From Blasia pusilla (lineage: Eukaryota): DNA of 64,000 nt. Shown here piece by piece: positions 20,750 through 64,000 of this stretch. The notes beneath the pieces are model-generated. The model saw only the letters and a list, made by a program, of their open reading frames with translations, was not told where the DNA came from and did no database searches. The stretch covers positions 9,672,001 through 9,736,000 of the forward strand of contig CM114271.1 of assembly GCA_050084515.1 (NCBI GenBank). Direction: 5' to 3'. The position numbers were made by a program, and so were the translations under genes. The first letter of the stretch is position 1; each line of letters opens with the position of its first letter.

Positions 20750-23700
20750 ATGACTCAAAAAAATTCCCAAGCCAGCAAGGTCGTGAGCTTCTCTCTCAAG
20801 CCAAGTGGAACTCCATTTTCTGGTATGGGACGCACGGCCACAGATTTTCGGCGAGAGAAAATTGAGGAGCGCGAGCGAGAAACCGAGATGAGGAAGCAAG
20901 AAATGTTGCCGAAACTAGCTCCGGAGAAGCTTGCAAAGCAAGAGGAGAAGCAAGAAGCAAAAATGCTTGCGGATGGGGAGAAGGCCAAGAAGAAACACAT
21001 GGATGCCGCCTTCCAGAAAGCCGAATTGGCAAAAGCAGGGAAGGAAAAGGCAATGGCTGCAGAAGAAGAACCCGCCCAGCGACCCATCGAGAGTGTGGAA
21101 ATAGGGGATGTCTCATCCATGAGTTCTAGCGGTCCAATGCAGGAGACCAATACCAATTAGCTTCCAGAGATCAACGAGGAAGCTGTTAGAACCCCGAGTG
21201 TCGAGATCATGGAGATCTTGGAAGGAGAAGAGTCTTCTTCATCTCATATGCCTGTTGAAGAATTCAACCTCTTTGCAATTGAAGAGTTTCTAGTAGACTT
21301 GTCAGATGAGGCTCATGAGGAGCTCGCTAGACTTGACACCGACCCATTTTTCGACTAGGTAAGCATTATTGAACAATTCTCTCTACATTGCATTACTTCC
21401 AGTCGTTCTGAAAATTGGAATTGACAATGGTGATATTCACGCAAGTGGTGAAGCAAATGGCATTGGTGGATGGCTTGAATGCCCCGAGGATTCCTCTCTC
21501 CCGACTCCAAAGGATGGAATACATCCAAGAAATCCAATCGGAGGAAGACATTGACAAGTTGAAGCAATCTGTGGCAACAACTTCATACGTTGATAGCTTC
21601 CCACCTTTCTATGTTCAACCATATGATGAGCATGGAACCCAAGCTTTGGTAACAGAGGAAGAGATGGAGAGTCTGGATGCTTTTTGGAGGCTAAGGGATT
21701 TGGAGTTCCGTAAGGCAGTGGCAAGAACCCAGTACAAGTGGATGCAAAACTTGTACTTCTTCATCTGGGATGGCAACCACCGATTCATGGCATGGTCGCA
21801 ATTTGCAACGGAGTGACCAAACTCCCTTGAGACTCACTTCTGCGTTAAGGTGGTGGTCCTCCGTCCCTACCCGAATCATATGGCTACGGTGGAGATGGTC
21901 ATGCACTCCATGAACACGTACGTATCCTCAAAAAAATTTCCGGAATAAGAACCAGCTTCAACCCGCCGCACTTCGATAAGTTGGTTCTTAGCAATAATCG
22001 TTAACGATAGCAGCAACCCGTCCGAAGGCGACGGGTTGCAATAGGAAGAACTCGCCGCCGTATCTGCAATCCGCTCGACTCCGATGGATTCCTTTTGGCT
22101 CTCTATTGAGTTTCCTGGAAACCCGTTAGAGTCTGATGGGTTGCACAATCTCAAGTGCAGCCATCCCAATAGGACAGGCCTTGCAACCCATTGGAGTCAG
22201 ACGGGTTGCAGATTCAAGAGGAGAGGAAAAGGCAGGTTTGAGTTGCCAATCATGCAACCCGTCGGACTTTCCGGATCTTTACGGAATGAATCTTGGTTGC
22301 GGTGGATGTGCAACTTGTCGGTCTCCGACGGGTTCCAAAGGCATGCAAAGCCAGACCTTCCATTAAGAACATGCAACCCGTCAGACTCCGACGGGTTGTA
22401 GGGCCACTCAAACTCGGCTGTCGGAACTACAATTTTTGCAACCCATCAAAGTCCGACAGGTTGCAAGAGGTCCCTCCTCTTCCAACCCATCGCACTCCAA
22501 CGGGTTGTAGGGCCACTCAAAATCGGCTATGGGAACTACAGTTTGTGCAACCCATCAGACTCCGACGGATCGGAAGAGGAGGGACTTCTTGCAACCCGTC
22601 GAACTCTGACAGGTTGCAAGAGAAAAAACTTGCCTCAAAATCCTCAATACGGATGCAAACATAATACCTAGTGTGGGTGGCTTTGCAACCCATCGTACTC
22701 CGACAGGTTGCCACCCAACCCGGATGCAACTTGTCGATTTCTGACGGATTGCATCAAGGAAGCTTTTGGAGCAACTTGTCGGACTCCAATGGGTTGCAAA
22801 CAGCTGTCATTTTGCTCGTCTTCTTCCAACCCGTCGGAAATTGACAGGTTGCTAGTCAAAGTGTTCTTACTTCTCATTTATGTTTGCAGCATTGTGTCGG
22901 AAGGGAATGTTACCCATCACTGGATCCATGAATGCGGCCGAGTGAGGAAGATTCTTACAATGCACCCGTGGTAATACAAAGGATTCCTTGGAGAGGATTT
23001 GGTGGATGAGATGCTCGCAAAAGGAGCACAAATAAAAAAGAAGACACTCACTCGTCATCATTCGATAGCTCCTCCAGAATCACCCGTGGCATTGCCCTTC
23101 CAAATTTTGGGATCACTGGTAGTAAGGATGACGTCACAACCATTGGCTCTAGTGCAGGTTCATTGATCTATGCAAGCAACTTGTAAACGCCCATCACCCT
23201 CTCGTAGTCAGACTTTGCCTCCTGGCAAAGTTCAAACAATGTGTTCCGAGACTCAAGACGGAGAATGTTTTGGCCACTCTGCCAAGCAGCTCTAACACTT
23301 GCCCCAGAAAGACCCACCAAATTGAGTACCAAATCACCTGGCCTCGAACACTGCTCCATCAGAGTTTGCATGAGTGTGGGTGATTTTTCCCTCCCTCCAA
23401 GCAGTGGCACTCCTTCCTCGACGAAGATTCTTGGGGGTGAATTGGACACGCTGTTAAGAGTGAATCCATCTGCACCCAGATCAATAGGATCTTGTACCTC
23501 AAAAATCTTGAACCTGTGCTCTGGTTTGACAAAACAATAGACGTAAGAGGATTTGATCTGCAATGAATAGATTCGTAAAAATCAGCTAAGAATCGATGGG
23601 AGGAAGAGATTTTCCAGGAGCAACCCGTCGGGTTGCAAATGTCAGATGTTATCGAGGCAATTTTCATTTAGGGGGCGATGCAACCCGTCAAATTTAGACG

Positions 23701-31509: not shown

Positions 31510-34500
31510 ATGAGACCTGATTTGAGTCCCACCGCCTTCCTCGGCAGTATACCTTGTACGCTCTGCAATGTGACACCCATCCAGTATCAACATGTGCTCT
31601 GTCCTTGGTAATACCATTATGGCAATCGCACAGGTAGTAGGAATCCAACACGTCTGAGAGAAGAAAAGAAGCCTACCCCTGCCTTTACGACTTGAGGGGA
31701 AGGCGCCAAGGGAAGAAGCCCGCCATACCTCTTAAGTTGGACCAACAGGGAAAGAGTCCGATCAAGCAACCTAAACCCTAAACCCTAAACCCTAAACCCC
31801 TGAAAGTCCCACTAAGTCGAACACCAAGTCACCCGGCCTTGAGCAGAGCTCGATGAGCGTTTGCATCAGGGCTGGCAACTTTTCCCTTCCTCCCAAAAGT
31901 GTGGTACTATCTTGCATGTAAATTCCCGGGGGGGAATTGTACAAACTATCTAAGCTGTACCCATCTGAGCATGGATCCACAGGATCCTAGATCTTGAATA
32001 CCTGGAAATTGTGCTCGGGCCGAACGAAGCAATAAACATAGGAGTGGTCCATCTGTAAAGAAGCATGTTGGAAAAAATGTCAGCAACTTGGCATAATGTG
32101 CAACACGTCACCAAAGAACTCGGCTTGACCCTAGATAACTTTTTTCAATTACTAACTTTGGATCAACCTGTCGGAGTCTGACGGGTTGTTTTGTCCCTGA
32201 CCAACCCGTCGGAAGGCGACGGGTTGCTGGCCTAGAGCAGCCCATGCTTGGCTGAGAGCAACCCATCACTTTTCGACAGGTTGCAACTTTACGGAAACAC
32301 AGGGAAAAACCAAAAGCAACTGCAACCCGTCGAGTTTCGACAGGTTGCAGGTACACCACGGTTTTCCCTGTGTTTCTGGGAAAGATGCAACCCGTTGCCT
32401 TTCGACGGGTTGCTCACGGACAAAAACAACGGAGATATACTATCAGGAATTCACACGCATTGAGCCTTACCCGAATTTGAAAATATATTTGAGATTTTAC
32501 TACAGGAATTGAGCCTTACCCGAATCTGACTCGTCACGGATCGGAGTGGGTACTCGTTTTTTATGAACCACGATTGCGCCGTCCTCCACTTTAGCGACCT
32601 CTTGACGCACTGGAGGTTGAAGAGCTCGTCCTCGCTCCCTCCAGTCAACACTAAGAAGCAGACCTTGTCACCCAGATAAGCGTCTGCAAAGGAGAACAAT
32701 AGCGCGATTTGGTCATAAGAGAGCGGCAAATTCCTGCCAGGTACCCCGTCCGACGGATTCTCGCCCCACAGTCGCAACCTTGAGGGCAGATCAGCAATCA
32801 AGAGATCCACCGCAACCTCTTCAACCACTCCATTCAGTGCCCGTTTCGTTGGAGCTTCCGTCCCAACGTTGTCAATTTATCAATGGCTGGTGTCGACGCT
32901 TGAGAACTGAAGCTTTTCAGCTCATCTAGTAAAGGAGTGAACTGAAGGAGGACGCTTGTCTGGGTCGTTGTTTCTCTATGTCTTCCCAAGGATGATGGAC
33001 TGTATTCTCCTTGGGACAACCCTGGCACCTCTCGCTTCCGCTTCTCTCGAGTCTACGAGCGGCTTGTCGGGGTCTCTATGACCTCAGACTCTGGTGGGGT
33101 TTTTTTCGCCGGGGACCTGGTCCGACCCTCTCACCCCGCTCGCCCGGACGATTCTGCCTCTGGCCTTGAATCTTCATCCTCTCTTTGGGAAGACTCGGCC
33201 TCGGAATTCTTCCCTCCCCTCGCCTTGCCTTTTAGACCCGTTGTGGATTTGTCTTTGGCTGTGCGGACCTTGGAAGCCAAGTCAGGTGTCTCGTGGGCTT
33301 GCTCTTCCGCATCTCCTCTAAAGAAGTCTTCAGGCTGCACAAAATTGGGGATTTCGTCTTGTCCTGAGGCCACTGCATCATGAAGCACTCGTAAATCCTT
33401 ATCGGTGATGTCTTTAGGGTCGTTGAAGTCAAGCCAAATGGGGCAATTCTCCACCTCCCAATCGGACATGTGCTGCGCCATCTCCATGTCGTACATGGAG
33501 AATGTCTCTCCATCAGACAGCGAAGCCCACAATTTCAAGGCTGCAGGTAATTTTCCCCAGGTACCTGCATTCTTACAGTGGACGAGGTACCTGAAGACCA
33601 TCCGTTGGGCATCTTTTACTTGAACTGAATCGGCCGTCTACTCCTGTAGATCTCGCTTCTTCTTTGCTTGATCCTGTTTGTTCCCCACGATTTCTTCGTC
33701 AAGCTCTGCTTGAGGGAGGACGCAAACCTTGAACATTGTCTTGAATCCTGGGTTTTTTATTGGCTTGTCCCGAATGTCGTCAAGCCAAATCTCAAGATCT
33801 ACAGAACTTTCCAGGTTTGCTTCATCCGGAATGGGCTCTAATCTTTTGAGCTCCGCTTGCAGACTGTCCAGCACGGACTTCCCGATAACCCGCAACGCGT
33901 CCCAGAACGACCATTCGCGTAGCCACTGGGAGATCACTGGATCGGACACACTCGGAGGATGGTGTGCCACCCTCTTCTGGGTCTCTGTGCCCTCGAGACT
34001 GATTTTCATCAGTCGGATCCTCCTAAACTTGCTTATGCCGGACAACGTAAACCGATGCACGCGATCCAGGGACACTTTCTCCCCAATCCAACCTTGCGGA
34101 TCTTCATCCCTTTTCCGCTGGCGCTTGATAATCGCCTTCAGCTCCTTGTAAAACTCCGGACCAAGTTTGGGGTTGAGAATGATGATGTATCGCTGCATCT
34201 TGCTCGCCGTGTATTTTGTGGCTGCAGATACTGCAGCTTGGATGAATTTCGCGCGCTCACACCCAGATACTTTCTCCCTCCGCTCCAGCTCCAGTGCAGC
34301 GCTCTTCTTCGCGGCTTGTATTTTTGACCAGCAAAGGATGGTTAGGGCTGCATCTTGGGAAATAAACTTATTTGCCCAAGTTTTCATTTTTATCTGTGCA
34401 CCCTTTGCAAGCATCTGATTTACTAGGGCGTCGCCCAAGAACCCCTTGTACTCTGTCGGGTGCATTATAAGCACCTTCTTCACCCGATCGCAATCATGGA

Positions 34501-36362
34501 TCCAGTGGTGGGTGACATTCTCCTCCGATATAATCCTGCATATCCAAACTCAACCCGTCGGAGTCCGACGGGTTATCACAGCTCAAGGTCGGATTCTAGC
34601 AACGATCTAAATGATGCAACCCGTCGGAGTCCGACGGATTGCATTCACATTTGTGAATGCCTGGTTTCAACTCGTCGGACTCCGACGGGTTGTCAGATAG
34701 TCCGTATCAAACGTGAACATAACAACCCTTCAGAGTCTGACAGGTTGCGCAATTGAATGGAAACTTGCAATTTGACGCGAAATTTGCTAAACCAACTTCC
34801 GAATGCAACCGGTCGGACTCCGACGGGTTGCTTTGGGCCAAAAACATACTAAACCTGTAGTCAGTCGAACAACTCGTTGGAGTCCGACGAGTTGCTTTCT
34901 TCAAAAAACATCTTGAAAAGGCGGCGAGTCGAGCAACCGGTCGGACTTCGACGGGTTGCTTTGGGCCAAAAACTTACTAAACCTGTGGTCAGTCGAACAA
35001 CTCGTCGGAGTCCGACGAGTTGCTTTCGGCATAAAATTACCTAACCCATTCATCAATCGAGCAACTCGTCGGAGTCCGACGAGTCGCGTTTGGCCAAAAG
35101 CATCCCAACAACAGTGCCGATCCAAACAACTTGTCGGAGTCTGACGGTTTGCAGCAAGAAGATACTTACGTGTTCATGGCATGCATTGCCATCTCCACCG
35201 TCGCCATGTGATGAGGGAATGGATGAAGGACCACTGCCTTCACGCAAAAATGTGCCTCCAAGGAGTTGGGCCGCTCCTCTGCAAACTTGGTCCACGCCAT
35301 GAACCTATGATTTCCATCCCAGATGAAGAAATACAGAATCCTCATCCAGCTGAATTCCGTGCCCTCTACTTGCCTTCTGAAATCCTGGTCTTTCATCCTC
35401 CAGAATGTGTCGAGCTTATCCAAGTCCTCCTCCGTAACCAGGGCTTGGGTTCCATGCTCGTTGTAAGGCTGAACATAGAAGGGAGGAAAGTTGTCGACGT
35501 AGGATGCTATCGCCGCCGATTGTTAAAGCTTCGCGATGTCCTCGTCAGACTGAATTTCACGAACGTATTCCATTGTCCGCAATCGGCAGAGTGGAATCCT
35601 CGGGGCGTTGTGGCCCTCCATGAGTGCCATCTGCTTTACCACCTGTCAGAACCGGGACAAGATCAATAAGCTACACTGAATTCCCAATGAATTGCAATTC
35701 ACATAATTCAAAAAACCCAGATCCTCTCTTACCCGCTCGAAAATTGGGTCGATTTCTTGACCAGCCAACTTGTTTGAGACAGCAGCTGGAAAATCGACAG
35801 GGAACTCGTCGATCCGATAGAGGTCGATGTTTTCCTCCGGGCTTGGAGACGATAATGACCGCTCTCCGTCTTCTTCAGCAATGTCCACCATCTCCACGCT
35901 GGCGGTCCTCATGACCTCATCGTCCGTGATTTGAACTTATGGCGTTTTCGCTATGTTGATTGTGTCCCCGGACTTCATCGGGGACATTTCCCGCATCTCA
36001 GCACTTTCAGTTGGACGGGCAGGGCTGTCGTCAATAGCTATCGCTTTTTCCCTCCTCGCTTTAGCCAATTCTGCTCTCCTCACCGACGGGTCCAGATGCT
36101 TCTTTTCTTTCTCTTCGTCGGCGATCCTTTTCTTCAAGGCCTACGACGTCTCAGCCTCTGCGTTCTGTCTATCAAGCGACTCTTGAACACGTCTTGCAAG
36201 AAGCTCCTGGTTGTGCATCTCCGCTTCCCTTTCCTGCTCCTCGATTTCCTGCTGCCTAATTTCATTTGCCGAACGAGGCCCTGGAGATGCTGACGGAGGA
36301 GTCCTAATGGACTTCGGAGTGAAGCTCCTAGACTTGTTTGCTTGAGCTTTTTTCCTCGTCAT
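31510..36362 (-). pseudogene. Gene A, copy 4 (coiled coil, ParB/Srx-like, beta-class methyltransferase-like; 4 exons)
   Basis: ORFs 36141..36383, 35646..35912, 35166..35423, 33638..34483, 33131..33601, 32451..32828 and 31792..31980. Confidence 0.8.
31769..31799 (+). repeat. Interstitial plant telomere repeat (CCCTAAA) x~4
   Basis: cctaaaccctaaaccctaaaccctaaaccc read directly. Confidence 0.9.
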
Positions 36363-36719
36363 TTTTCCCGGAAATGCCTCCACCTATGTCCACGATGAAT
36401 CGCTTGATCAGTCGCCTTGCTGATGTCGAGATGAGTCGCCTTGATGGGTAGCTCGAATCGTCTCGCGATCATTCAGTCGAACTGTCTCACTCTCGTTCCC
36501 TCGTATCGACTCGCGATGACTCGCGGTTTGAAACGCCCCTTGGTATCTGATCAGCTGCTGCGCGGGAGAGAGAGGGATGGAGATCGCGAAATGAGAAACT
36601 GGAAATGAGCAATTTTTCCCTATTTATACTTTTCTAGCCGTTGGGCTGACCGTTGGGTCCCGTCGTCCTTTCGACGGCGACGTGCCGGCCGTTACGGAAG
36701 TCGGGACCTGAAAAATGGC

Positions 36720-37470
36720 AACCCGTCGGAGTCCAACAGGTTGCGCGCCTCCGCCGTCCTTGGAAGATAACGTGAGGTGCACGAGCAACCGTCGGAGATC
36801 GACCGGTTGAGCGCCTTTGCCGTCTTCGGACAAGAACGCGAGGTACCCGCAACCCGTCAGAGACCAACAGGTTGCGCGCCTCCGCTGTCTTCGGACAAGA
36901 ATGGGGCGTACCCGCGCAACCCGTCGGAGACCGACATGTTGCGCGCCTCCGCCGTCTTCTGACAAGAACAGGACGTACCCGCGCAATCCGTCGATGACCG
37001 TTGGGTTGCACGCTTCCCTCGGCAAAGGTTAACAACACGGGCTTCCCGCGCAACTCGTCGGAGTTCGACAGGTTGCACGCTTCCTTCACGTAAGCGAAAC
37101 AAGGCGAGGCCCTTGCGCAACTCGTTGGAGGGCGACGGGTTGCACGCCTTGCCGTCTTTGGGCAAATAGGTGCGACACACGCGGAACTCATCGGGAACAG
37201 ACGGTTTGCACGCTTCCTTCATGTAAGTGTTACACCGTGAGATAATTGGGCAACCCGGCTGATGCCGACGGGTTGCAAGCCTCCGGCATCTTTGGGCAAG
37301 AAGGAGCGGTATCCGAGCAACTCGTCGGAGAGCGACGGGTTTCCAACTTCGACCATGTTTGCGTTTGAAGGTAAGGCAAAAGCGTGCAAACCGTCCGAAG
37401 CTGACGAGTTGCAGGCTTCGCTTAGCTTGGGTTAATTGTTGAGTTACCAGGACTTCGACGGGTTCCAACA
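36720..37470. repeat. Intergenic palindrome array, copy 4
   Basis: ~57-61 bp period, homologous to 3095-4090. Confidence 0.9.
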
Positions 37471-37692
37471 AAATGAAGTGTGCTTCGCAACCCATGTCTC
37501 TGCTTCCCAAATCTGGTAACACTTTGCAACACAATTGAATATGTTGCAAAAGAATTGGGTCCATTGTGTCAGACAATGTCACCTACCGAACTTCATCTTG
37601 TCAGTAAAAATCTGTCAGGAGTATCTGTTTTCCTGTTCACTATAAATTAAAAATTCTCATTCTCACCCTCCTCCCGTACGAAATTTCTGGGA

Positions 37693-40600
37693 ATGGATAA
37701 TTATGTGAAGCTCACTTGTGGCAGTCATCTGGCGGCCCTTCCTCAATCAGAAATCATTCGACTGCAAGCTCGTGAGTCTTTCATAGCACTGGATGAAAAT
37801 TTTCTCTCTGTTCGATTTCTTCTCCAAATTGGAACCATCTTTGTATCCAAAGATATTAGGGTGGACGGTACGGAAGACATAATAGGTGAGACAGTCCAGC
37901 AAGTGACTGCAAACCATAAAGTATAGAATCTCCTACCTCTAGCAAATGGTCAATACAAAGTTTACGGCCTACCCGTGAATTTGTCTGTTTCCCAAGTAGA
38001 CGGTGGAGAATTTCCTAGTGCTCCGAGCTCTACGTGTGCAACTCCTAGCTCAGTACATCCGGCTTTGACTCCAACTTCATACGCTCGTATCAATGTAGTT
38101 CTTCCTGAAGAGATTCTGTATGTTATCAACCTCAATGGATCTGTCGAACACCAACCGGGCCCTCTATCCGCCTACTCGTTCCTCTTGCGAGTATCAAGCA
38201 ATAGTTTGCTTTCGTCTCAGGCCTTGAAAATGTTCAAACACATTCTTGTCGACAAGCTGCCCCCCACGTACGATGGTAATTGCATTTTTGAGTTGCCTCC
38301 ACTTGCTGCTCCTGCTCAAAAGAAAGATGGAGGACGCCTGAAGGGTATGGACAGAAAGTCGATTGTCATCGATGGTGCAGGCTTCAACGGACTAGTGCTT
38401 CAATTCCAGATGGTCCTTGGATTGTCTCCCGCCGCCAATGCGTGGGAGCCTTGGAGTATAGAAGTCCAGCATGCCCGTATCTAGAGTGCAACGGGCGAGT
38501 CAATACGTCGCAATTCCCCCCCAAGAATGCAAAAACTCCATACGAGGTCGGTGCCACCATACTGTCGGGAGGCCATCGATGTCCTCATTGTCACGCATTG
38601 CCCTTTTGCATTGGAGCGTGTCCTGCATACATATTTTTCATTGTCCACGACTTGGGCTCCACGTCAGAGTACACAAGGCTGGCAGTTCATGTTGGCTCCC
38701 ACAATCATCCTGTGAACGATGCAATTCAGAGACACATTAAGGAGGATGTGGCGAAGAAAGTTGCCGAGGTCTACAGAAACTCTCCGGGTTCAAAGCCCGG
38801 AGTGATCAAGCTCACAATGGCATCATAAATTTGTGAACAATTGCGTGGAATCCCTGGACAAGGCGAGATCACGGCGGCTAAGGAGAAACAACTCTGGGAA
38901 AATCTCGCATTTCTCGCTAATCCTGAATGCTTCCGGAATTTGCTGCGTCAAATACGAGTTCTGGATGGAAAGACGGCCAAAATGGATGCCATTGCCAGAA
39001 TCAAGGCCAACTACAGATTTCCATTCATTCAGAGATGGCAGTTCATGGGCCAAGGAGGCGAGGGATCCAGGGCCTATGTCTTCAAAATGTCAACCACAGT
39101 CCGTCTGAGTGGCCTCGATCTTATAGATCGAATGAGGGAAGGGAAAGATCTTTACGGCGGTGGGTAAGCTTTGATATTTGCTCTGAGTCTTTGAATGGAT
39201 GGTTGACGATGGGTGCTCACGTTTATGACCATGTGGAGAAGGGACTCAAAACTATATTTGTCTGTGAAGTAAAGGCAGAAGACGTTGGCAGTTTGAAGAT
39301 GTGCTGGTTACTCTTATTGGAGGTGGTGAAGGAAAACAAAAGGCCACCTCCGGAAATTTATGGGTTCATGGCAGATAATGCACAACCTGGGTGGATTGCT
39401 ATTTGGGAAGTGTTATGGGGTGGAGAGGTTCAACCGGAGAGGGAAAGGTCAGATGCTTTATATTGGCAACAGTCTGTGACCCGGTACACCAAATCTTGCA
39501 TCAAGGAGAATAAGAGGACAGAGCATGTCACTCTACTCCAACGCTGCAAGGACAACAAAACCTTGAAGCACGCCATGGAATACCAGGAAGAACTTCATGG
39601 GTAGTGGAGGAAGCATGCGATTGAGGGGGAGTACAAAGAGTTGTGCTCTTGGTTGAGTTGGTGGACTGTACGTATGAGACAATGGGGAAACTTCATGCGG
39701 CAGGTGAGTTCACTATTTTGTCTTGTCAAGCTCACGCTGAGAATTGTTTGTAAAGTTGCAGCTCAGGTTGAGAAGCGTGGGAACTATAGGGATTTCAAAC
39801 CAAAGAAACCAAGCAAGCTGTTGGATGCGACGGGTTTCGCGAGTGTGCAACCCGACGGAAACCGACGGGTTGCATCAAGAATTTTGGTGCAACCCAAGTG
39901 TGCAACCCGACGGAAACCGACGGGTCGTAGAGTCGTTCATGGGATGCCTCGGCCTTGCAACCCGTCTCAATCCGACAGGTTGCAATAGGTGGGTTTAGGA
40001 TTGCAACACGTCGGGACCAGACGGGTCGCAGAGTCGTTCATGGGATGCCTCGGCCTTGCAACCCGTCTGGTTCCGACGGGTTGCAGTAGGCGGGTTTAAG
40101 GTTACAACACGTTGGGACCCGACGGTCGCAGAGTCGTTCATGGGATGCCTCGGGCTTGCAACCCGTCTGGTTCTGACAGGTAGCTTATGTCTTTGATTGC
40201 TGAGTTATTTTTGTTCCCTTCTAACATTGCCGTCGTTGCAGGGATTGAACGTTCATGAAAATGCCCTCTGCCCCAACACAAGTGGAGCAGAAAGTGTTCA
40301 TTCCTCCTGGAGGTTGTCACAAGCATGCCAACAAATTTCACTTGTGGAGGCATGCCAACAAGACCAGGCAAGAGCAATGCTCTGATCTGCAAAGACATCC
40401 CATATCTTCCTCACAAAAGGCATAACAAAAGGAAGGGGGTCGTCGATCTACGAGCTCTATGTCAGGGCGGCTGTGAGATCTGGTGATGAAAAAATGTATG
40501 TGGAAGCCTTCAATCGGTGCGAAGTAGGAACTCCCCTCAAGCAAGACGTACACATTGGTGGGGATATTCGTGGGCGGGTTTCAAGACGTCCTATACAGAT

Positions 40601-41747
40601 GGTGGTAGAGCATTCCGAGCGAGACTCGTGGAGACCAGATAAGTATCTTGACTTCAGGCCGGTGAAGAGGCAGCATCGAGGAACGAATCCAGTGATTGAT
40701 TTGGATGAGGAAATTACGCCGCCCAAGTATTCGGGGACCCCGGACCGCTCCCTAATCCGTGATGGAGTTACTTCTCCAAAATCAGTGAATGTTTTATTTC
40801 AAAAGCCCTCTGTTGCTGGAAGTTCGCAACATCATATCATTGGAGTGGTTCAACAATATGGGATTCCGGTAATGGAGGTGGATTGCAACCTAAAACGGTG
40901 GCATATATCTCGGAGCAACCCAGGACGTGGACCCACCAGCAGGGTAGGATCTGATGGCATTAGGAGAGCATGCGGCACTTTCATAAATAAAAACTGTACA
41001 AGGACAGGACGACCACTGCTTGGGTTTTGGGGACTCAAAACCTTTGATCGTTTCACGAGGACTGAGGATCAATTGAAGTACTTCTTCTGCACAAATGAAT
41101 CTTGCACTTTCCAGAAGTCTTATCCGGCTGCCATTGGAGCTCCGGGCAATACCCCCACGATTTGGCCCAACGCCGTAGGTACGAACTGTACTCAAGACGA
41201 AGTGGACAATCTTACAAGTGCCGGTTTCAGACTCATAGACGGGGGAAGTTTGGATCATGTTCGCATTACATAGACCTTTGCATTTTGTATTCAACCCAAG
41301 ATTGATGTCAACATGTACCCGGAGAAGGTGGATGATCTCAATCCACTATTTCTGTTTGAGTCTAGAAATGGGGTGAAGAGAAACAAAATGTGTAGGCCAA
41401 CGGTGGAGAGAGCAAAGCGAATTGCATAAGCTCGGGAGGCAAAAATAGAGATCATCGCCACGAAAGATGTCCACAGTGGCAATGGAATAGGAAGGATGTA
41501 TTGGGTCAGGAACAACACTGTAAATTTAAGTGTCACAAGGGTGTATGTGGTGCACATCTATTGCTTTCCCATATGTTCATGTGATGACTTTGTCCAAAGA
41601 GAGACAAGTGGAAAAAAATATTTCCCTTGTAAGCACATGTACTATGTATTGCAGGTAGTTGTAAGTGAGTCGGAGGTAGGAGTAGGAATCCACCAACCAA
41701 TTCTGTCCCTCAAAGAAGTGCGAAGTATTTTAAACAAACCACTTTGA
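37693..41747 (+). pseudogene. Gene B: Mutator/MULE-like transposase (GCM-like Cys/His domain, DDE core, SWIM finger); 2 exons, intron 39704-40241
   Basis: WVSFDIC (D1), GFMADNAQPGW (D2), RSDA(F/L)(H/Y)W (C/DxxH position), PNTSGAESVHSSW (E), CSCDDF..FPCKHM (SWIM); GT..CTAAC..AG intron; several stops and frameshifts. Confidence 0.8.
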
Positions 41748-42519
41748 GGATGCAAAATGAGGTTTTAGATTGTACTTTCATTTTTCAAGAACCTTCACTT
41801 TTAGCTTGAACTCTATTCAGCCTAGGGCAAATGGTAGATTGTTTCCGGATCTTGGATGGAAAAAGTGATTGGTTCCACACTTATGATTCCACTGATTTTT
41901 CAGTTTTGTATATTTTGTGCAATTTGCAACCAGTCGGACTCAGATGGGTTGCCAAAATATGGAAGAGAAAAAAGATTTGTGGGAGTGTTTAATAACTGAA
42001 CAAAAAAGTGCAAAAAAATTCACACAAAAAGTTTCCTCTCTTCAACCCAACTGAAACTCTCTTCAAAAAAAAGTATCTATTTCGGTTGAAGGTAGTTTCC
42101 TCTCTCCTCTCTCCTTTCTTCCTTTCTTCCTCTCCTCTTACCGCACCTCCAACCCATCAGGGTTGAACTATTTGCAGGCCTTGCATACATGCAACTTGCA
42201 ACCCGTCGGAATTCGACAGGTTGCACACTCATGCAACCAGTCGGGTTCCAACGGGTTGCACAAACATTCCTCGTGCATGATGTCACGCTCCAATGGGTAA
42301 TACAAACATTCTTGATGCAACCCGTCGGTTTTCGACTGGTTGCACATTCAGGCAACCTGTCGTATCTAACGGATTGCTTGGTTTCTTCCGTTTGAAATCC
42401 CTATAGTGCCCACGCTTCTTAACTTGGGCTGTAACTTTTCAAACAATTCTCAGCATGAGCTCGATAGGACGAAATAATGAACTCACCTGCCATATGAAGT
42501 TTCCCCATTGTCTCATTTG

Positions 42520-49722: not shown

Positions 49723-52700
49723 ATGACGAGAAAGAAAACACAAGAAACCAAGGTAGGGAGCATCACTCCCAAGTCCATCAAGACTCATGCGTCACCATCT
49801 CCACGTCCTCGTTCGGCGAATGAGATAAGGCAACAAGAAATAGAGGAGCGGGAAAGGGAAGCAGATATGCACAGGCAAGAGATTCTAGCAAAACGTGTTC
49901 TGGAGGAGCTTGCTAAGCAAAACACCAAGGCTAAGGCATCGAAGGCCTTGAAGAAAAGAGTCGCGGACGAGAAACGCGAGAAGAAGCATCTTGACGCCTC
50001 TGTGAGGAGAGCAAAATTGGCAAAATCTCGAAGAGAAAAAGCAATCGCCATTGAAGAAAGCCTTGCCCGTCCAATAGAGAGTGTTGAGATGTACGAAATG
50101 TCTCCAATGAGGTCTGGGGACACCATGAATATAAAATAGGCTGAGGAAAACGGCCAAAGTTCAAGTGACGGACGATGAGGTCATGAGGACAACAAGTGTG
50201 GAGATGGTGGAGGTCTATGAAAGTAGGAGAAGAGACCTCGTTGTCTTTGAGCCCTGTGGAAGAAATCGACCTTTATGGGATCGATGAGTTTCCCGTGGAC
50301 TTGCCTGCTGGTGTCTTAGAGCAGTTGGCGAGCCTGGACACCGACCCAATCTTTGAGCGGGTAAGAAAAATTTGAGTTATGTGAAGGCTCATTATGCAAT
50401 TCATTGGCAAAACACTGCATGTTATTGACTTGATCCTCATTATGGCAGGTTTTTAAGAACATGGCACTGATGGAGGGCTAGAACGCCTCAAGAATTCCAC
50501 TCTGTCAATTGCGGACAATGGAGTACGTCCGCGAAATTCAGTCAGAGGAGGATATTGCAAAGCTAAAACAGTTGGCAGCGACTGCATCCTACGTCGACAA
50601 CTTCCCTCCGTTCTATGTTCAGCCTTACGATGAACATGGAACCCAAGCGCAAGTGATGGAAGAGGACTTAGAGGAGCTGGATACTTTTTGGAGGATGAGA
50701 GATCAGGAGTTCAGAAGAGCGATTGAAGGAACCAAATTTAGCAGGATGCGGAACCTTTACTTCTTCATCTAGGATGGAAACCACAAGTACATGGCATGGA
50801 CGCAGTTTGTAGAGGAGCGCCCAAATTAATTGGAGGTGCATTTTTGCGTGAAGGCAGTAGTGCTCCATCCATTTCCTCATCACATGGAAACGGTGGAAAT
50901 GGAAATACATGCGATGAATACGTAAGTTTCCTCTTCCTTAAGTTTGATTGCTTCAACCCATTGGAGTCAGACAGGTTGAATAATTGGAAAGCTTAAAGAT
51001 TTGAGTCTCTTGCGACCATCCTGTTTGTGGTCAATGTCATAGTCAAGCAATCCGTCGGAGTCCGACGGGTTTCCTGGTGGCCAAGGACAACATCGACAGG
51101 TGGAAAAATGAATGCATGATTTGTTTGTTCTGCAATCAGCTAGACTCTGACGAGTTGCACAACGAGAGGTAACAAATCATTGGGCATCTAAAAGCAACTC
51201 GTCAGAGTCCAACGAGTTGCTGGACTGTCCGGTATCTTTTGGATATTTTTGGCCGAAAGAAACTCGTTGGACTCCGACTGGTTGCATTTCTTCCATGTGT
51301 TACCATTTTGACCCCCATGGGTTGACAGAATTGCGACCCATTGGAGTCCGATGGGTTGCACAAACCCGATAGCCGCAGTGTTCTTACTTTGTGTTTGGAT
51401 GTGCATGGTTGTATTCGAGGGGAACATCACCCACCACTAGATCCACGATTGCGACATGGTAAATAAGGTGCTTACGACGCACCCGACAGAGTATAAGGGA
51501 TTCCTGGGCAACGGTCTGGTGAATGAGATGCTCGCAAAGGGAGCTCAAATAAAAAAGAAGACTTGGGCAAATACCTTCATTTCCCAAGATGCAGCCATCA
51601 CAATCCTATGTTGGTCCAAGATCTAGGCCGTCAAGAAGAGTGCGTCGTTGGAACTAGAGCGAAGGGAAAACGTGTATGCGTCGAAACGTGCAAAGTTTAT
51701 TTTGGCTGCTGTATCTGTAGCTACAAAGTACATTGCAAGCAAGATGCAGCGATACATTGCGATTCTCAACCACGAACTTGGCCCAAACTTTTACAAGGAG
51801 CTCAAGGCGATAATCAAGCGCCAACGGAAGAGAGACGAAGATCCACAGGGTTGGATTGGCGAGAAAGTGTCTCTGGACTGTGTGCACAGATTTGCGTTGT
51901 CTGGGATATCCAAGTTTCCGGAGAATTTGACAAATGAAAATCAGTCTCGAGGGCACTAAGGCCCAAAAGCGGGCGGCACACCATCCTCAGAAAATTTCAG
52001 ATCCAGTGATCTCCCATTGGCTACAGGAATGGTCATTCTGGGACGCATTACACCTTCTCAAGAAGTCCATGCTCGTGGGTCTTCAAGCGGAGCTGAAGAA
52101 GATTGAGCCAGTTCCAAAGGAAGCAAACCTAGAGGCTACAAAAGATTTTGAACTATGGCTTGATGACATCATAGATAAGCCCACGAAAAACCCAGGATTC
52201 AGGATGATGTTCGAGAATCACATCCTCCCTTAGGCAGACATGGATGAGGAAATAGAAGACAAAAAAATGGGATTTTGCAAAGAAGAAGCGGGATCTTCAG
52301 GACCAAGCTGCCAAGTCATCTAAAAAAAGAGCTCCCTAGCGGATGGTGTACAGGTACCTCATCAATTGTAAGAATGCAAGAACCTGGCAAAAATTATCGG
52401 CAGCTTGCAGATTGTGGGCTTCTGCGCCTGATGGAGAGGCATTCTCCATGTACGACATGAAGATGGGACAAGGCATGTCCGACTAGGAGGTTAACAATTG
52501 TCCAATCTGGTTGGACTTCAACGACCTAGAGGACATTACAGAAAAAAATCTATGCGTGGTGTATGATGCAATGGTCGCAAGTAGGGACGACATTCCAAAC
52601 TTCGTGCAACTCGAGGATTTTTGAAGGATATGCAAAGGAGCAAGCCCTCGAGACAGCAAAGTTGGTGGGCAAGGTCGTCACCACCAAAGACAAATCCACA

Positions 52701-58238: not shown

Positions 58239-61200
58239 GGGGGCAGGTATTCTGGCAAGAGAGAGTAAGAGAGGAGAGGAAGAGAGGAAGAGAGGAGAGT
58301 CTCTCTTCAAAACTTTTTGACATATTTGAATTTTTTGTTTGCTTTCAAATTCATGAAATCTTTAGAAGAGAGTAGGTAGTGGTCCACATTTGGCCCTAAA
58401 AAAAATTCCTTTTTCCTGGGGGCGAAAAAAAAGTAGACATCATAAGACCACTACAAACATTTTTCCATCACTCTCCATGTGAGCCTAAGTTTCTTAACAT
58501 TACCTGTCTCGGTCTACAAAAAGCAGTGCCCATGGGTATTTTTGTTGGAGGACCACCCGGATGCCAACCTCTCTTTTTGCAGGGATTGTTGCCTGCATCA
58601 TGGCCTCCCCTGAATTGCCCCATAACCAACTTTCTCTTGGTTATGAATGGTGTCTGCTCAAGACCAACTTTGTGAAATATGAACACATGAGAGGATAATT
58701 GAACCAAAAGATTGTTAGCTGTTTGGAGTAAAGAGGAACTAATGTCCCTTCATTCAGATCCTAAGGCTGAGAAACCGAGAAGCTGCACCCCTCCCAACCC
58801 GTAAGAAAGCTCACCATAAGAAAGGAAAGATTTTTAGAAGTGATTTTCTTCCACCCTGCACCCACGACGATCTAACAGGTTGGGAATCCGAAATGGCAAT
58901 CTGATAGGTAGTAGGAATCCTGCACATCTTAGACAAGAAAAGAAGCCTACAACTGGTTTGACGAATGTAGGGGAACGAGCCAAACGTTAAGAAGCCCGCC
59001 ACAATGCGTCAGAAGTTGGTCTCACAGGGAAAGAGTCTGATCACTCAAGCAGTCAACCCGTCGGAATCCGACAGCTTGCCTAGAAATGGTTAAAAAGTTG
59101 CAGTGGGCAAAAAGCAAAAAGTTGCAACCCGTCGGAATCATACGGGTTGCAAAATTGTAATTCTGAGTAGCTAAAAGAACACAATCCACAAGTCCAACAA
59201 AATATTCCATCAAACTTTTGCAAACACCATTATGGGTTGAAAAAATCTCGTCCTTTATTACCTCCGAAGGAACCTCGGAAATGTACATTTGACCTAGTCA
59301 ATGATTTCTTCAGCCTTGTCATCTACAAATTTACTCCTAACTCTCCTCGGTGACAGTACAAAAGGAATGTCATGGGATACAAGTGGCTCCTATGGCTGAT
59401 TGTAGACGGGGATCGAAAATGTTGGCGAATTTGAGAGCCTTGGCCCCCCCCTAGGTACGCCATAACGGTCCCATGTAACCTGATTTGAGTCCCACCGCCT
59501 TCCTCTGCAGTATACCTTGTACGCTCTACAATGTGACACCCATCCAGTATCAATATGTGCTCCGTCCTTGGTAATACCATGATGGCAATCGCACAGGTAG
59601 TAGGAATCCAACACGTCTGAGAGAAGAAAAGAAGCCTACGCCTGCCTTTACGAGTTGAGGGGAAGCTGCCAAGGGAAGAAACCCGCCAGACTGCCTCTTA
59701 AGTTGGACCAACAAGGAAAGAGTCCGATCAGGCAACCTGTTGAAATCCGACAGGTTGCCTGGAAGTGGTAAAAAGGTGCCGTCGTCAAAAAGTGAAAAGT
59801 TGCAAGCAGGAGAAATCCGACGGGTTGCAAAATAGAAGTTCGCGGAGTACAAAGACGATCACATTCGAAAAGACATAAAAAATGTTCAGAAAACTACAAC
59901 CGGAGCTCTCGGCTTCGGTGGAGAGTTATACGCCCCAACGAGCCTCTCGTATTCTGCCTTTGCCTCCTTGCAAAGGTCAAACAGTTCCTGCCTTCCCTCA
60001 AGGCAAAGAATGTTCCTGCCACTCTCCCAAGCGCCTTTGATACTTGCCCCTGAAAGTCCGACTAAGTCGAACACCAAGTCACCCGGCCTTCAGCAGAGCT
60101 CGATGAGCGTTTGCATCAGGGCTGGCGATTTTTCCCTTCCTCCCAGAAGTGGGGTACTGTCTTGCATGTAAATTCCCGGGGGATTGTACAAACTATCTAA
60201 GCTATACTCATCTGAGCATGGATCCACAGGATCCTGGATCTTGAACACCTGGAAGTTGTGTTGGGGCCGAACGAAGCAGTACACGTAGGAGTGGTCCATC
60301 TGTAAAGAAGCACGTTGGAAACAATGTCAGCAACTAAAGAAGTCGGCTTGACCCTAGAGAACTTTTTCAATTACTAACTTTGGATCAACCTGTCAGAGTC
60401 CGACGGGTTGTTTGAAGAGCTCGTCCTCGCTCCCTCCAGTCAACATCAAGAAGCAGCCCCTATCACTCAGATAGGCGTATGCAAAGGAGAACAATAGCGC
60501 GATTTGGTCATAAGAGAGCAAAGACATTCGTCAGTATTTCGTCCGACGGATTTCGCCCGATATCGCAACCCCGAGGGGCGGATCAGCGATCAAGAGATCC
60601 ACCGCAACATCTTTGACCACTCCATTCACCGTCGAGGCAGCGTGCCCGTTTCGTTAGAGCTTCTGTCCCAGCGTTGTCAATTTATCAATGGCTAGTGTCG
60701 ACGCTTGAGAACTGAAGCTTTTCAGCTCATCCAATAAAGGAGTGGACTGAAGGAGGAGGCTTGTCCGGGTCGTTGTTTGTCTGTGTCTTCCCAAGGATGA
60801 TGGACTGTATTCTCCTTGGGACAACCCTGGCACCTCTCGCTTCCGCTTCTCCCGAGTCTGCGAACGGCTTGTCGAGGTCTCTATGACCTCATACTCTGGT
60901 GGGGTTTTTTTCGCCGAGGACGTGGTCCGACCCTCTCTCCCCGCTCGCCCGGACGATTCCGCCTCTGGCCTTGAATCTTCAGCCTCTCTTTGGGAAGACT
61001 CGGCTTCGGAATTTTTCCCTCCCCTTGCCTTGCCTTTGAGACCCACTGTGGATTTGTCTTTGGTTGTGCTGACCTTGGAAGCCAACTCAGTTGTCTCGTA
61101 GGCTTGCTCTTCTGCATCTCCTCTGAAGAAGTCTTCAGGCTACACAAAATTGGGAATGTCGTCTTGTCCTGAGGCCACTTCATCATGAAGCACTCGTAAA

Positions 61201-63548
61201 TCCTTATCGGTGATGTCTTCAGGGTCGTTGAAGTCAAGCTAAATGGGGCAATTCTCCACCTCCCAATCGGACATGTGCTGCCCCATCTCCATGTCGTACA
61301 TGGAGAATGTCTCTCCATCAGGCGGCGAAGCCCACAATTTCAAGGTTTCCGGTAATTTTCCCCAGTTACCTGCATTCTTACACTGGACGAGGTACCTAAA
61401 GACCATCCGTTGGGCAGCTTTTACTCAAACTGAATCGGCCGTCTGCTCCTGTAGATCTCGCTTCTTCTTTGCTTGATCCCGTTTGTTCCCCTCGATTTCT
61501 TTGTCAAGCTCTGCCTGAGGGAGGACGCAAACCTTGAACATTATCTTGAATCCTAGGTTTTTTATTGGCTTATCCCGGATATCGTCAAGCCAAACCTCGA
61601 AATCTACAGAACTTTCTAGGTTTGCTTCATCCGGAATGGGCTCTAATCTTTTGAGCTCCGCTTGCAGACCGTCTAGCACGGACTTCCCGATAACCAATAG
61701 CAGCCCCAAAGACGACCATTCGCGTAGCCACTGGGAGATCACTGGATCGGACACACCCGGAGGATGGTGTTCCGCCCTCTTCTGGGCCTCTGTGCCCTCG
61801 AGATTGATTTTCATCAGCCGGATCCTCCTAAACTTGCTTATGCCGGACAACGCAAATCGATGCACGCGATCCAGGGACACTTTTCGACGGATTGCATTCA
61901 GATTTGCTAATGCCTAATGAGGGAATGGATGAAGGACCACTGCCTTCACGCAAAAATGTGCCTCCAAGGAGTTGGGCCGCTCCTCTGCAAACTTGGTCCA
62001 CGCCATGAACCTGTGATTTCCATCCCAGATGAAGAAATACAGATTCCTCATCCAGCTGAATTCCGTGCCCTCTACTTGCCTTCTGAAATCCTGGTCTCTC
62101 ATCCTCCAGAATGTGTCAATCTTTTCCAAGTCCTCCTCCGTAACCAGGGCTTGGGTTCCATGCTCGTCGTAAGGCTGAACATAGAAGGGAGGAAAGCTAT
62201 CGACGTAGGATGTTGTCTCCGCCGATTGTTTAAGCTTCGCGATGTCTTGGTCGGACTGAATTTTGCGGACGTATTCCATTGTCTGCAATCGGCAGAGTGG
62301 AATCCTCAGGGCGTTGTGGCCCTCCATGAGTGCCATCTGCTTTACCACCTGTCAGAACCGGGACAAGATCAATAAGCTACACTGAATTCCCAATGAATTG
62401 CAATTCACATAATTAAAAAAATCCAGATCCTCTCGTACCCGCTCGAAAATTGGGTCGGTTTCTTGACCAGCCAACTTGTCTGAGAAAATCTGGAAGCTGG
62501 AAAATCGACTGGGAACTCGTCGATCCAATAGAGGTCGATGTCTTCCGCCGCGCTTGAAGACGAGAATGACCGCTCTCCGGATTCTTCAGCAATGTCCACC
62601 ATCTCCACGCTGGCGGTCCTCATGACCTCATCGTCCGTGATTTGAACTTTTGGCATTTCCGCTATGTTGATTGTGTCCCCGGACTTCATCGGGGACATTT
62701 CCCGCATCTCAACACTTTCGGTTGGACGGGCAGGGCTGTTGTCAATGGCTATCGCTTTTTCCCTCCTCGCTTTAGCCAAGTCTGCTCTCCTCACCGACGC
62801 GTCCAGATGCTTCTTTTCTCTCTTTTCGTCGGCGATCCTTTTCTTCAAGGCCTTCGTCGTCTCAGCCTCTGCGTTCTGTCTATCGAGCGTCTCTTGAACA
62901 CGTCTCGCAAGAAGCTTCTAGTTGTGCATCTCCGCTTCCCTTTCCCGCTCCTCGATTTCCTGTTGCCTAATTTCATTTGCGTTTAACGAGGCCTCGGAGA
63001 TCTTGACGCAGAGTCCTAATGGACTTCGAGTGAAACTCCGCACTTGTTTGCTGTGATTTTTCCACGTCATTTTTTCCGGAAATGCCTCCACCTATGTCCA
63101 CGATGAATCGCTTGATCAGTCGCCTTGCTGATGTCGAGATGAGTCGCCTTGATGGGTAGCTCGAATCGTCTCGCGATCATTCAGTCGAACCGTCTCGCTC
63201 TCGTTCGGTCGAACCGTCTCGCTCTCGTTCCCTCGTATCGACTCGCGATGACTCGCCGTGTGAAACGCCCCTTGGTATCTGATCAGCTGCTGCGCGGGAG
63301 AGAGAGGAATGGAGATCGCGAAATGAGAAACCGGAAATGAGCGATTTAGGCCCTATTTATACTTTTCTAGCCGTTGGGCTGACTGTTGGGTCCCGTCGTC
63401 CTTTTGACGGCGACGTGCCGGAGGTTACGGAAGTCCGGACGTGAAAAATGGCAACCCGTCGGAGTCCGACAGTTTGCGCGCCTCCGCCGTCCTGGGTACG
63501 TCGCCACGTGCGGAAGAAACCCGTTGGAGACCGATGGGTTGAGCACCT
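58239..63548 (-). mobile_element. Mutator-like element copy 6: right terminus and gene A on minus with several deletions
   Basis: Starts GGGGGCAGGTATTCTGGCA, the reverse complement of the 14383 end; very similar to copy 4. Confidence 0.8.
59294..63070 (-). pseudogene. Gene A, copy 6
   Basis: ORFs 62405..62848, 61914..62348 (DGNHR), 61425..61880, 60654..61085, 60090..60299 and 59886..60077 (VFDLVGLSGASIKGAWESGRNILCLE). Confidence 0.8.
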
Positions 63549-64000
63549 CTGCCAATACATCCTTCCTATTCCATTGCCACTCAAGACATCTTTCGTGGCG
63601 ATGATCTCCATTTTTGCCTCCCGAGCTGATGCAATTCATTTTGCTCTCTCCACCGTTGGCCTGCACATTCTGTTTCTCTTCACCCCATTTCTAGACTCAA
63701 ACAGAAATAATGGATTGAGATCATCCACCTTCTCCGGGTACATGTTGACATCAATGCTGGGTTGAATACGAAATGCGAAGGTCTCTGTAATGCGAACTTG
63801 TAAGATTGTCCACTTCGTCTTGAGTGCAGTTCGTACCTGCGGCAATGGGCCAAATCATGGGGGTATTCCCGGGAGCTCCAATGGCAGCCGGATAAGACTT
63901 CCGGAAAGCGCAAGATTCATTTGGGCAGAAGAAGTACTTCAATTGATCCCCGGTCCTCGTGAAACGATCAAAGGTTTTGAGTCCCCAAAACCCAGGCAGT
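63549..64000 (-). pseudogene. Gene B exon 2 fragment
   Basis: Reverse complement of 41015-41505 (KYFFCPNESC, KVDDLNPLFLFESRNG); runs off the window. Confidence 0.75.

Follow-up and report, generated by a model that had tools for sequence, protein, structure and literature searches.

A ParB/sulfiredoxin-fold exon in the cargo gene of a palindrome-bearing, Mutator-like transposon family of Blasia pusilla

The 64-kb stretch of Blasia pusilla DNA analysed here (the window: GCA_050084515.1, contig CM114271.1, forward-strand positions 9,672,001 to 9,736,000; coordinates below count from its first letter) contains several copies of one transposon family, which together occupy 57% of it. The element carries two genes set back to back: gene B, a SWIM-bearing transposase, and on the opposite strand gene A, whose second exon codes a domain of the ParB/sulfiredoxin (Srx) fold. 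The motifs by which a preliminary description had picked out this domain map to the minus strand at 62348-61917, and the five copies that it counted were all recovered by tblastn (73-100% amino acid identity, E <= 8e-68; the next, unrelated match had E 4). These are copy 1 (1589..1983, minus strand, frameshifted and truncated), copy 2 (21445..21918, plus strand; tblastn 21445-21876), which is the most diverged, copy 3 (full length 35170..35642, minus strand; tblastn 35642-35211), which has one internal stop, copy 4 (50449..50922, plus strand; tblastn 50449-50880) and copy 5 (61917..62348, minus strand), whose last 14 codons are deleted. In the whole genome (390 Mb in 26 contigs) 150 matches of the exon were scored out of 2,818 first-look candidates, and every one of them was 89-99% identical; neither figure equals a copy number.

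Gene A has four exons, coding in turn a low-complexity N-terminus, the ParB-like domain, a helical region with a linker and the N-terminal half of a methyltransferase (MTase) domain, and the C-terminal half of this domain; the splice phases join in frame. In copy 5, on the minus strand, exon 1 (62439..63070, low-complexity and coiled, broken) is followed by intron 1 (62349..62438, GT..AG, phase 0, predicted from splice signals), the ParB exon, the remainder of exon 3 (60412..61883, helical region, linker and MTase N-half, broken) and exon 4 (59898..60299, the MTase C-half with the motif-I region GDLVFDLVGLSG). Copy 3, on the same strand, has exon 1 at 35733..36362, exon 3 at 32520..34535 (helical region, linker and MTase N-half with motif IV D-L-P-S) and exon 4 at 31797..32052, shortened by telomere-like repeats. 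A short telomere-like TTTAGGG run lies at about 31770-31800, at the exon 4 break of this copy, and is possibly a healed break. All copies of gene A in the window are broken by stops, frameshifts or deletions, as are most copies of the family. In copy 5 a deletion removed the last 14 codons of exon 2, including a conserved Asn, nearly the whole of intron 2 and about 150 codons of exon 3. The limits proposed earlier, 61914..62348, therefore place the exon correctly but not its end, since the stop at 61914-61916 is a product of this deletion; intact ParB exons have 157 codons plus 2 nucleotides.

The view that the domain sits on an exon of its own is upheld by splice signals and by RNA reads. The acceptor of the ParB exon is AG in three of the five window copies and AA in the remaining two, and its donor is a phase-2 GT in all three copies that retain that end. 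At locus L043, the copy used below as reference, RNA reads skip 5914->6892 (GT..AG), which is intron 2 as predicted from splice signals; three runs from a single study gave 1, 3 and 2 such reads. The junction of exons 1 and 2 is not among the RNA-read junctions listed for this locus. The organism label of these runs differs from that of the DNA and most reads are less than 95% identical, so the reads document splicing in related copies. Read polarity is opposite over gene A and gene B, as expected of divergent transcription, and an intron of gene B is visible in the reads as well. Over positions 9353-10000 of L043 (exon 4 and the 3' region) RNA depth is about ten times that elsewhere in gene A and loose ends are numerous; this excess is perhaps due to transcripts that are chimeric or shorter.

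Comparison of nine 20-kb genomic neighbourhoods showed the unit to have fixed ends and a length of about 12.1-12.8 kb. Both ends were found in 12 of the 29 elements examined, and 10 of these 12 are flanked by 9-bp target duplications (at least 8 of 9 matches), against none of 132 mismatched pairs, which bears out the transposon setting suggested before. An LTR (long terminal repeat) retrotransposon or a virus as the host element was ruled out by the 9-bp duplications and by the two fixed, differing ends. The ends are of the form G...C, with inverted GA-rich subterminal repeats and outer 25 bp that pair poorly; the 5' terminus of copy 3, with its GA-rich subterminal repeat, lies at 42120..42149 and the 3' terminus of copy 5 at 58239..58253, both on the minus strand. 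Gene B codes a Zn-finger-like N-terminal region, acidic motifs and a SWIM finger (E 0.014). Its broken representative in copy 3 spans approximately 37650..41870 on the plus strand, with the Zn-finger-like region at about 38580, acidic motifs at 39167 and 39368, and the SWIM finger at about 41574-41640. Its motifs FD, ADN and DAFH, with the acidic motifs, resemble the Mutator (MULE) core. The search against Pfam gave no MULE match at E <= 1, and the searches against the Protein Data Bank (PDB) and plasmid sequences gave no meaningful match. The label "Mutator-like" is therefore based on the target duplications, ends and motifs, with the MULE profiles of Pfam unmatched.

How well has the ParB exon been preserved in comparison with the other parts of gene A? 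Amino acid identity to L043 is 78-94% for the ParB exon, 71-90% for the helical region, 69-91% for the linker, and 71-89% and 68-98% for the two MTase halves, so that its ranking among the best-conserved parts of the gene was right. In copy 2 the ParB exon is still 75% identical, against 41% for exon 1. Relative to L043, the ratio of nonsynonymous to synonymous substitution rates (dN/dS) of the ParB exon is 0.11, both in 27 close copies and in 9 at middle distance. The helical region has 0.15-0.19, the linker 0.21-0.25 and the MTase halves 0.11-0.22. All pairs share this single reference and include decay after insertion; the exon 1 value is unreliable, as L043 has a frameshift there. Judged from these ratios, the ParB exon is under purifying selection.

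Our first comparison of the domain with known proteins was done at the level of sequence. Pfam returned DUF1015 alone (E 0.0075-0.03), phmmer against the PDB gave 0 matches, and a PDB profile search gave one match, unrelated. The ESM Atlas offered feature leads alone (ParB_N on 11% of one cluster, DUF3723 on 31%), and a word-based homolog search proved insensitive, with yields of 1 and 2 matches. The second level of comparison was the fold. An AlphaFold model of the exon from a 96-sequence alignment reached a predicted local distance difference test (pLDDT) of 84.5 and a predicted TM-score (pTM) of 0.80. When it was searched against 48,161 chains, 14 reached Z >= 2; 13 of them are ParB/Srx-fold proteins, and one is an unrelated methyltransferase (2.1). 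KorB came first (8.6), followed by PadC (8.2), Arabidopsis Srx (7.2), SerK (6.5), pNOB8 ParB (6.2), Atu1540 and human Srx (both 6.0), SbnI (5.5), and then SspE, Spo0J, BrxU, Osa and a Dnd complex chain. In a second structure comparison Caulobacter ParB (7bm8) was best (Z 9.7, root-mean-square deviation 1.9, 95 aligned), with Myxococcus ParB and KorB within 1 Z of it; by branch, ParB, KorB, Noc and PadC (7.9-9.7) ranked above Srx and SerK (5.7-7.2) and these above GmrS (3.1). Foldseek found the same families at weak E values (best 4.6e-3 in the PDB and 1.7e-3 among viral models; none below 0.001). The ParB/Srx fold named in the preliminary description has thus been recovered instead of an unrelated one, and the exon is real, selected, spliced and rightly assigned. 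The top match among the viral models was an uncharacterised protein of Cafeteria roenbergensis virus, and DndB-like proteins of Marseillevirus and Pithovirus also appeared; giant viruses are a possible route into eukaryotes.

A homolog search among 1.84 billion representatives gave 141 matches at E <= 0.001, at least three of them repeat-rich chance matches. The phosphate-binding signature D-G-N-H-R is exact in 86 of 142 homologs, and its surroundings are strongly conserved: R28 in 91%, F43 in 95%, Y48 in 98%, D/E109 in 96%, G110 in 90%, N111 in 99%, H112 in 96%, R113 in 88% and N157 in 84%. An insertion of about 40 residues in the domain keeps W77, W81 and F88 in 96-99% of homologs; the query exon itself deviates, with A43 and L77. 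In the model the G-x-x-R pocket lies where a strand (105-109) gives way to a helix (111-122). The register to ParB was inferred from motifs and from the ends of the structural alignments, with the residue numbers of M. xanthus and C. crescentus ParB. In this register the GERR/ENLQR motifs of ParB CTPases are replaced by G-N-H-R-F and M/I/L/V-N, and both catalytic glutamates are lost: N stands at the E78 position (99%) and I, L, V or M at the E111 position. ParB CTPases are reported to require GE78RRY/F and E111NLQR, and PadC, which is without both glutamates, binds CTP and does not hydrolyse it (bioRxiv 2021.05.05.442573). Sulfiredoxin has its catalytic Cys in FG/SGCHR, with an H-R pair that binds phosphates, and the DGQHR/DndB family is described by the three motifs QR, DGQHR and FxxxN (PMC4619093). 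Here the Cys is Asn in 99% of homologs, and V-R, DGNHR and M-x-x-x-N are equivalent to the three DndB motifs. Profile matches to that family are weak: TIGR03187 in 4 of 96 alignment members (best E 0.001, 18.8 bits against a cut-off of 58.85) and PF14072 in 2 of 96. The predicted structure thus points to the ParB/KorB/PadC branch and the motifs to the DndB branch; the modelled domain likely holds a nucleotide pocket, the identity and hydrolysis of the nucleotide aside. A match to PD-Lambda-5_A (3 of 96, E 0.012) could not be tied to ParB.

The helical region after the ParB domain gave an all-helical model (pLDDT 74, 25 sequences) whose best structural match, Z 5.2, is an unrelated chain. Neither Foldseek nor VIA listed a ParB DNA-binding domain for this model, in which residues beyond 138 are barely covered, and the ESM Atlas gave no leads for the region. 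Judged by eye, the first 180 residues of exon 3 may resemble the helix 4/helix-turn-helix (HTH) region of ParB. Homodimer prediction for a Riccia relative with ATP and Mg scored 0.16 against a mark of 0.32, the custom alignment having gone unused. A ParA partner is absent, the element encoding the transposase and gene A alone.

The MTase domain has the permuted order, motif IV before motif I, of beta-class N4C/N6A enzymes. Its C-half matches PF01555 (E 1.4e-4 for exon 4 of L024; 9.4e-6 in a Riccia relative, just below the cut-off) and a PHROG profile of phage DNA MTases (E 2.4e-7), and PDB profile search ranks DpnA-type, RsrI and CcrM enzymes first (E 0.005-0.09). The methyltransferase said to be fused to the ParB domain therefore has a beta-class amino-MTase fold. 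The UniRef name "Trimethylguanosine synthase" on Riccia P0143, P0145, P0146 and others was rejected, since PF01555 matches instead. Direct phage matches were weak, with E 0.004-0.06; the one ranked first is a gene of 249 residues that stands alone, without ParB fusion. The catalytic pattern [DNS]-P-P-[YFW] is replaced by D-L-P-S here and by D-[LMIV]-P-x in most relatives. Its aromatic fourth residue occurs in two of the 29 copies scored (14 proteins, every one from the Riccia families, and 15 loci), and a fern protein outside these 29 has D-V-P-F. Motif I reads D-L-V-G-L-S-G here, D-F-A-G-G-W-G in Riccia, D-W-N-A-S-T-G or D-I-T-A-S-T-G in other relatives and D-V-M-A-G-C-G in one copy, to be compared with the S-adenosylmethionine (SAM) binding pattern F-x-G-x-G; the last Gly and the next acidic residue are retained. 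From these motifs we consider a catalytically active domain possible, if somewhat unlikely; it may be conserved in a non-catalytic role. By the same kind of evidence gene A lacks the active-site motifs of a partition ParB CTPase, of sulfiredoxin and of a canonical amino-MTase.

It is useful to trace gene A across other taxa. Relatives are known from the liverwort Riccia, the fern Adiantum and metagenome contigs; among 30 homologs looked up, seven come from Riccia sorocarpa and four from Adiantum nelumboides, and a Riccia protein of 1,207 residues contains the complete ParB-helical-MTase chain. Exactly one residue past the conserved Asn, 41 of 142 homologs stop; 30 were scored as continuing, a few of them wrongly, and 71 do not reach or match the motif. 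A GT follows two bases past the Asn codon in seven of the nine loci where the motif was located. Both observations indicate that the exon boundary is old. The best 80 of 206 metagenome loci fall into 45 distinct groups. The MTase lies downstream in 16 of the 22 groups with at least 4 kb of downstream DNA; of the 17 groups with at least 5.5 kb upstream, 7 have a related transposase there on the opposite strand. Searches of phages, plasmids and viral contigs with the ParB exon by tblastn gave no match. The sole match in a prokaryote genome, L183 (CADCWO010000058.1), is a 4.7-kb contig of a cyanobacterial metagenome-assembled genome, with a near-intact gene A, spliceosomal-type introns and upstream palindromes. 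As a prokaryotic source it was set aside as likely plant contamination, given its introns and its 98% identity to metagenome locus L077. A prokaryotic origin of the ParB-MTase fusion itself would be inferred from the modelled folds.

The palindromic sites mentioned in the preliminary description turned out to form arrays. With up to 5 mismatches allowed over 22 fixed letters, the window contains 141 copies of a 27-bp palindrome that has a 3-bp centre, and each of 20 shuffles contains 0. The four elements counted have 28-41 copies each, nearly all in the promoter gap, the transposase intron, introns 2 and 3 and the 3' flank. In copy 3 there are 11 in the promoter array between the divergent genes (36719..37411), 10 within or at the end of intron 2 (34551..35151), five in intron 3 (32164..32412) and six in the transposase intron (39848..40183); two further palindromes (63452..63541) lie left of the promoter array of copy 5. 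This array is interrupted by a same-family copy in opposite orientation, which starts at 63552 (window 63552-64000; L011), and nested and adjacent copies of the family are common. Copy 2 (19841-26193) is rearranged internally, with pieces of gene A on both strands and palindrome clusters near; palindromes may promote such inversions. Among the relatives, 24 groups have at least 5 kb of DNA, and 9 of these hold five or more copies of a single palindrome; after shuffling 0 of 24 did so, and 12 distal stretches had three copies at most. The arrays occupy the same places as in the Blasia element. Their arms vary by family and many share a TCGG-N2/3-CCGA core, found 20 times in 64.6 kb of upstream DNA and once in 73.7 kb of distal DNA when one transition is allowed.

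With the element, its spliced gene, purifying selection, both folds, the non-coding arrays and this layout in distant relatives established, we can ask: What does gene A do? The reading that we prefer, with somewhat less than even confidence, is that gene A is a working cargo of the Mutator-like transposon whose product regulates its own family through the palindrome arrays; the palindrome rows and the ParB-MTase gene would probably let the element recognise and regulate its own copies. The ParB-like domain would bind a nucleoside triphosphate (NTP) through V27-R28, D109-G-N-H-R113 and N157 and act as a switch; a canonical ParB CTPase is not expected, given the replacement of both catalytic glutamates. 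As a dimer, the protein would recognise the TCGG-N2/3-CCGA core, which has two-fold symmetry, and the outer arms would confer family specificity. The MTase fold, with its degenerate catalytic and SAM-binding motifs, would more likely bind or shield CG-rich DNA than methylate it. As a net effect the divergent promoter, hence the transposase, would stay active against host silencing by 5-methylcytosine (5mC), as VANC does for VANDAL. Such a VANDAL/VANC-like mode of action is, by analogy, the most plausible one. VANC is reported to bind short motifs in non-coding tandem repeats of VANDAL elements and to remove methylation, and its effect extends past the binding sites by a route that is left unexplained (PMC10398659).

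Several points weigh against this preferred reading. The palindromes could be bound by the transposase instead. RNA depth is low (386-511 reads per run, a single study). Of the 24 long metagenome groups 15 have fewer than five palindrome copies, several arrays have other cores, and 10 of the 17 groups with enough upstream DNA are without a transposase at the threshold used. Finally, C->T decay at CG sites, scored in 29 copies by counting rare C->T changes and excluding columns changed in more than a fifth of the copies, is 5.5% in palindrome cores and 4.3% in arms, against 5.8% in transposase exons and 4.7% in gene A exons. A/T transition rates are 0.5-1.9%, and CG decay is five to ten times the A/T rate outside the cores. 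CG and CHG decay in palindromes is thus no lower than in the remainder of the element, and decay that is equal everywhere gives no sign that the sites were lastingly protected from 5mC. By this pattern the element copies look methylated throughout; short active phases of protection would be compatible with it.

A bolder reading would place a device of the bacterial ParB/parS type in the nucleus of the plant: a clamp encoded by the transposon and gated by nucleotide would load at the parS-like palindromes of the element and spread along it, its MTase would mark DNA with N4-methylcytosine or N6-methyladenine (4mC or 6mA) or shield it against 5mC, and the arms would keep families apart across non-seed plants. 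We hold this to be rather doubtful. Close to it is a model that builds on the preliminary description, in which a ParB sliding clamp loads at the palindromes, closes on NTP and carries an active MTase whose 4mC or 6mA blocks or replaces host 5mC. The best structural matches do come from the clamp-forming branch (ParB, KorB, Noc and PadC), the sites are palindromic and repeated, and ParB glutamate mutants are reported still to close and to spread further (bioRxiv 2021.05.05.442573). The MTase C-half is strongly selected, too, and the model can also point to the fern D-V-P-F and to the single D-V-M-A-G-C-G copy. The fold, the pocket signature, the MTase fold and the palindromes of that model have accordingly stood up, but the CTPase glutamates (N in 99% and I/L/V/M here), the motif IV aromatic and lowered CG decay have not. 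A spreading active methylase is doubtful because the aromatic is missing in 27 of 29 copies, motif I is degenerate, changing SPPY to APPA abolished the activity of the bdelloid N4CMT (PMC8885841), and CG sites show no protection; as a whole we judge the model unlikely.

Could the arrays serve to hold the element down instead? A self-limiting repressor would bind the divergent-promoter arrays and lower the transposase and itself in the manner of KorB or DndB, with the nucleotide controlling release. KorB heads the library-wide search, the V-R/DGNHR/M-x-x-x-N set fits the DGQHR/DndB motifs (PMC4619093) with weak TIGR03187 and PF14072 matches, a DndB homolog is reported to repress its own operon (PMC8569181), and a large array of 10-11 sites lies between the two genes. 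However, arrays also lie deep in introns and in the 3' flank, which better fits coverage of the whole element, and the family has become abundant (all 150 scored matches are 89-99% identical), so we think a repressor improbable, though worth weighing. An accessory of transposition, that is, an NTP-regulated nickase or DNase aiding excision, repair or replicative copying, with the palindromes being transposase sites or unrelated hairpins, seems still harder to accept. It can draw on Bce_0392, a ParB-adenine methylase fusion that nicks DNA non-specifically, and on Osa, an ATPase and DNase (PMC5512222), and the pocket arginine is retained in 88% of homologs; but Osa, SspE and BrxU, the nuclease-linked members among the fold matches, are the weakest (Z 2.7-3.4), and the arrays are internal rather than terminal and adjoin gene A in relatives. 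That gene A is a captured host or bacterial fragment without function would agree with its broken window copies and low expression, but is highly improbable and already largely refuted by the dN/dS of 0.11 and by a domain order and exon boundary shared among proteins whose identity is only about 25-45% (the boundary in 41 of 142 homologs; GT at seven of nine loci).

Compared with known systems, the exon shares with the N-domains of ParB, KorB, Noc and PadC the fold (about 90-97 residues), the arginine before the first helix, G-x-x-R, the terminal Asn and repeated palindromes nearby; these proteins have G-E-R-R and E-N, whereas gene A has G-N-H-R, a hydrophobic residue for E and the insertion of about 40 residues, is without ParA, and is eukaryotic, spliced and fused to an MTase. 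With DGQHR/DndB/GmrS (DUF262) it shares x-R, DG-x-HR, hydrophobic-x-x-x-N and a link to DNA modification, but the profiles stay below threshold (best E 0.001), Z is only 2.2-3.4 and the Dnd and HNH partners are missing. Sulfiredoxin is alike in fold and H-R pair and differs in the Cys of its G-C-H-R. The ParB-methylase fusions Bce_0392 and phage ParB-terminase loci also place ParB N-terminal to a DNA amino-MTase on a mobile element; here about 550-600 extra residues separate the domains, the MTase motifs are degenerate and introns are present. VANDAL of Arabidopsis is likewise Mutator-like, with degenerate terminal repeats, an extra gene and family-specific short motifs arrayed in non-coding regions, but in the present element the cargo has ParB and MTase folds, palindromes of 25-29 bp that share a core make up the motifs, and anti-silencing would be assigned by analogy. 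The folds of VANC presumably differ from those of gene A. Prokaryote-type amino-MTase folds occur in eukaryotes in Marchantia MpDN4MT1 and bdelloid N4CMT, both host genes with SPPY (PMC8885841 for the latter), and in the transposon-borne, likely inactive Dam-like copies of DIRS1 (PMC4738411); here D-[LMIV]-P-[STERW] stands on a ParB-fused gene of a DNA transposon. Iyer et al. 2016 describe ParB-linked eukaryotic MTases in a chlorophyte/chytrid clade with a ParB-type HTH and in a haptophyte clade from phage ParB-terminase loci, without naming a land-plant transposon family among them (PMC4738411). A full-text literature search, whose coverage leaves out most subscription journals, found no description of ParB-MTase fusions in plant transposons, and the module of ParB-like domain, MTase fold and palindrome-array transposon is apparently undescribed before.

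Fungal DUF3723 clusters of the ESM Atlas resemble the ParB exon in features (0.93, 147 shared, rank 7). DUF3723 is a conserved cargo gene of the giant Starship transposons, linked there to an SMC model and not to ParB (bioRxiv 2021.12.13.472469); it could represent a second case of ParB/Srx-like cargo among the transposons of eukaryotes. Two other features lie among the element copies of the window. At 7564-9059 (minus strand), between copies, there is a Ty3/gypsy-type gag (PF03732, E 2e-10) with a weak zinc-knuckle match. A C-rich insert in copy 4 at 42833-44698 (minus strand) has a weak aspartyl protease match (E 0.098) and a C2H2 zinc finger (E 2e-4) and is probably another retroelement.

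Palindrome-loading nucleotide switches of the ParB type have been described in bacteria and their mobile elements. Here a ParB-type domain and an MTase fold reside in a nuclear DNA transposon that covers more than half of the window. If the palindromes are bound by its product, the element would represent a second solution to sequence-specific self-protection of transposons. As both the site and the enzyme pocket are defined, such a mechanism can be tested directly, and the families with their different arms offer a natural set of protein-site pairs with differing specificities. The transposon is also a possible source of 4mC or 6mA in bryophyte methylomes.

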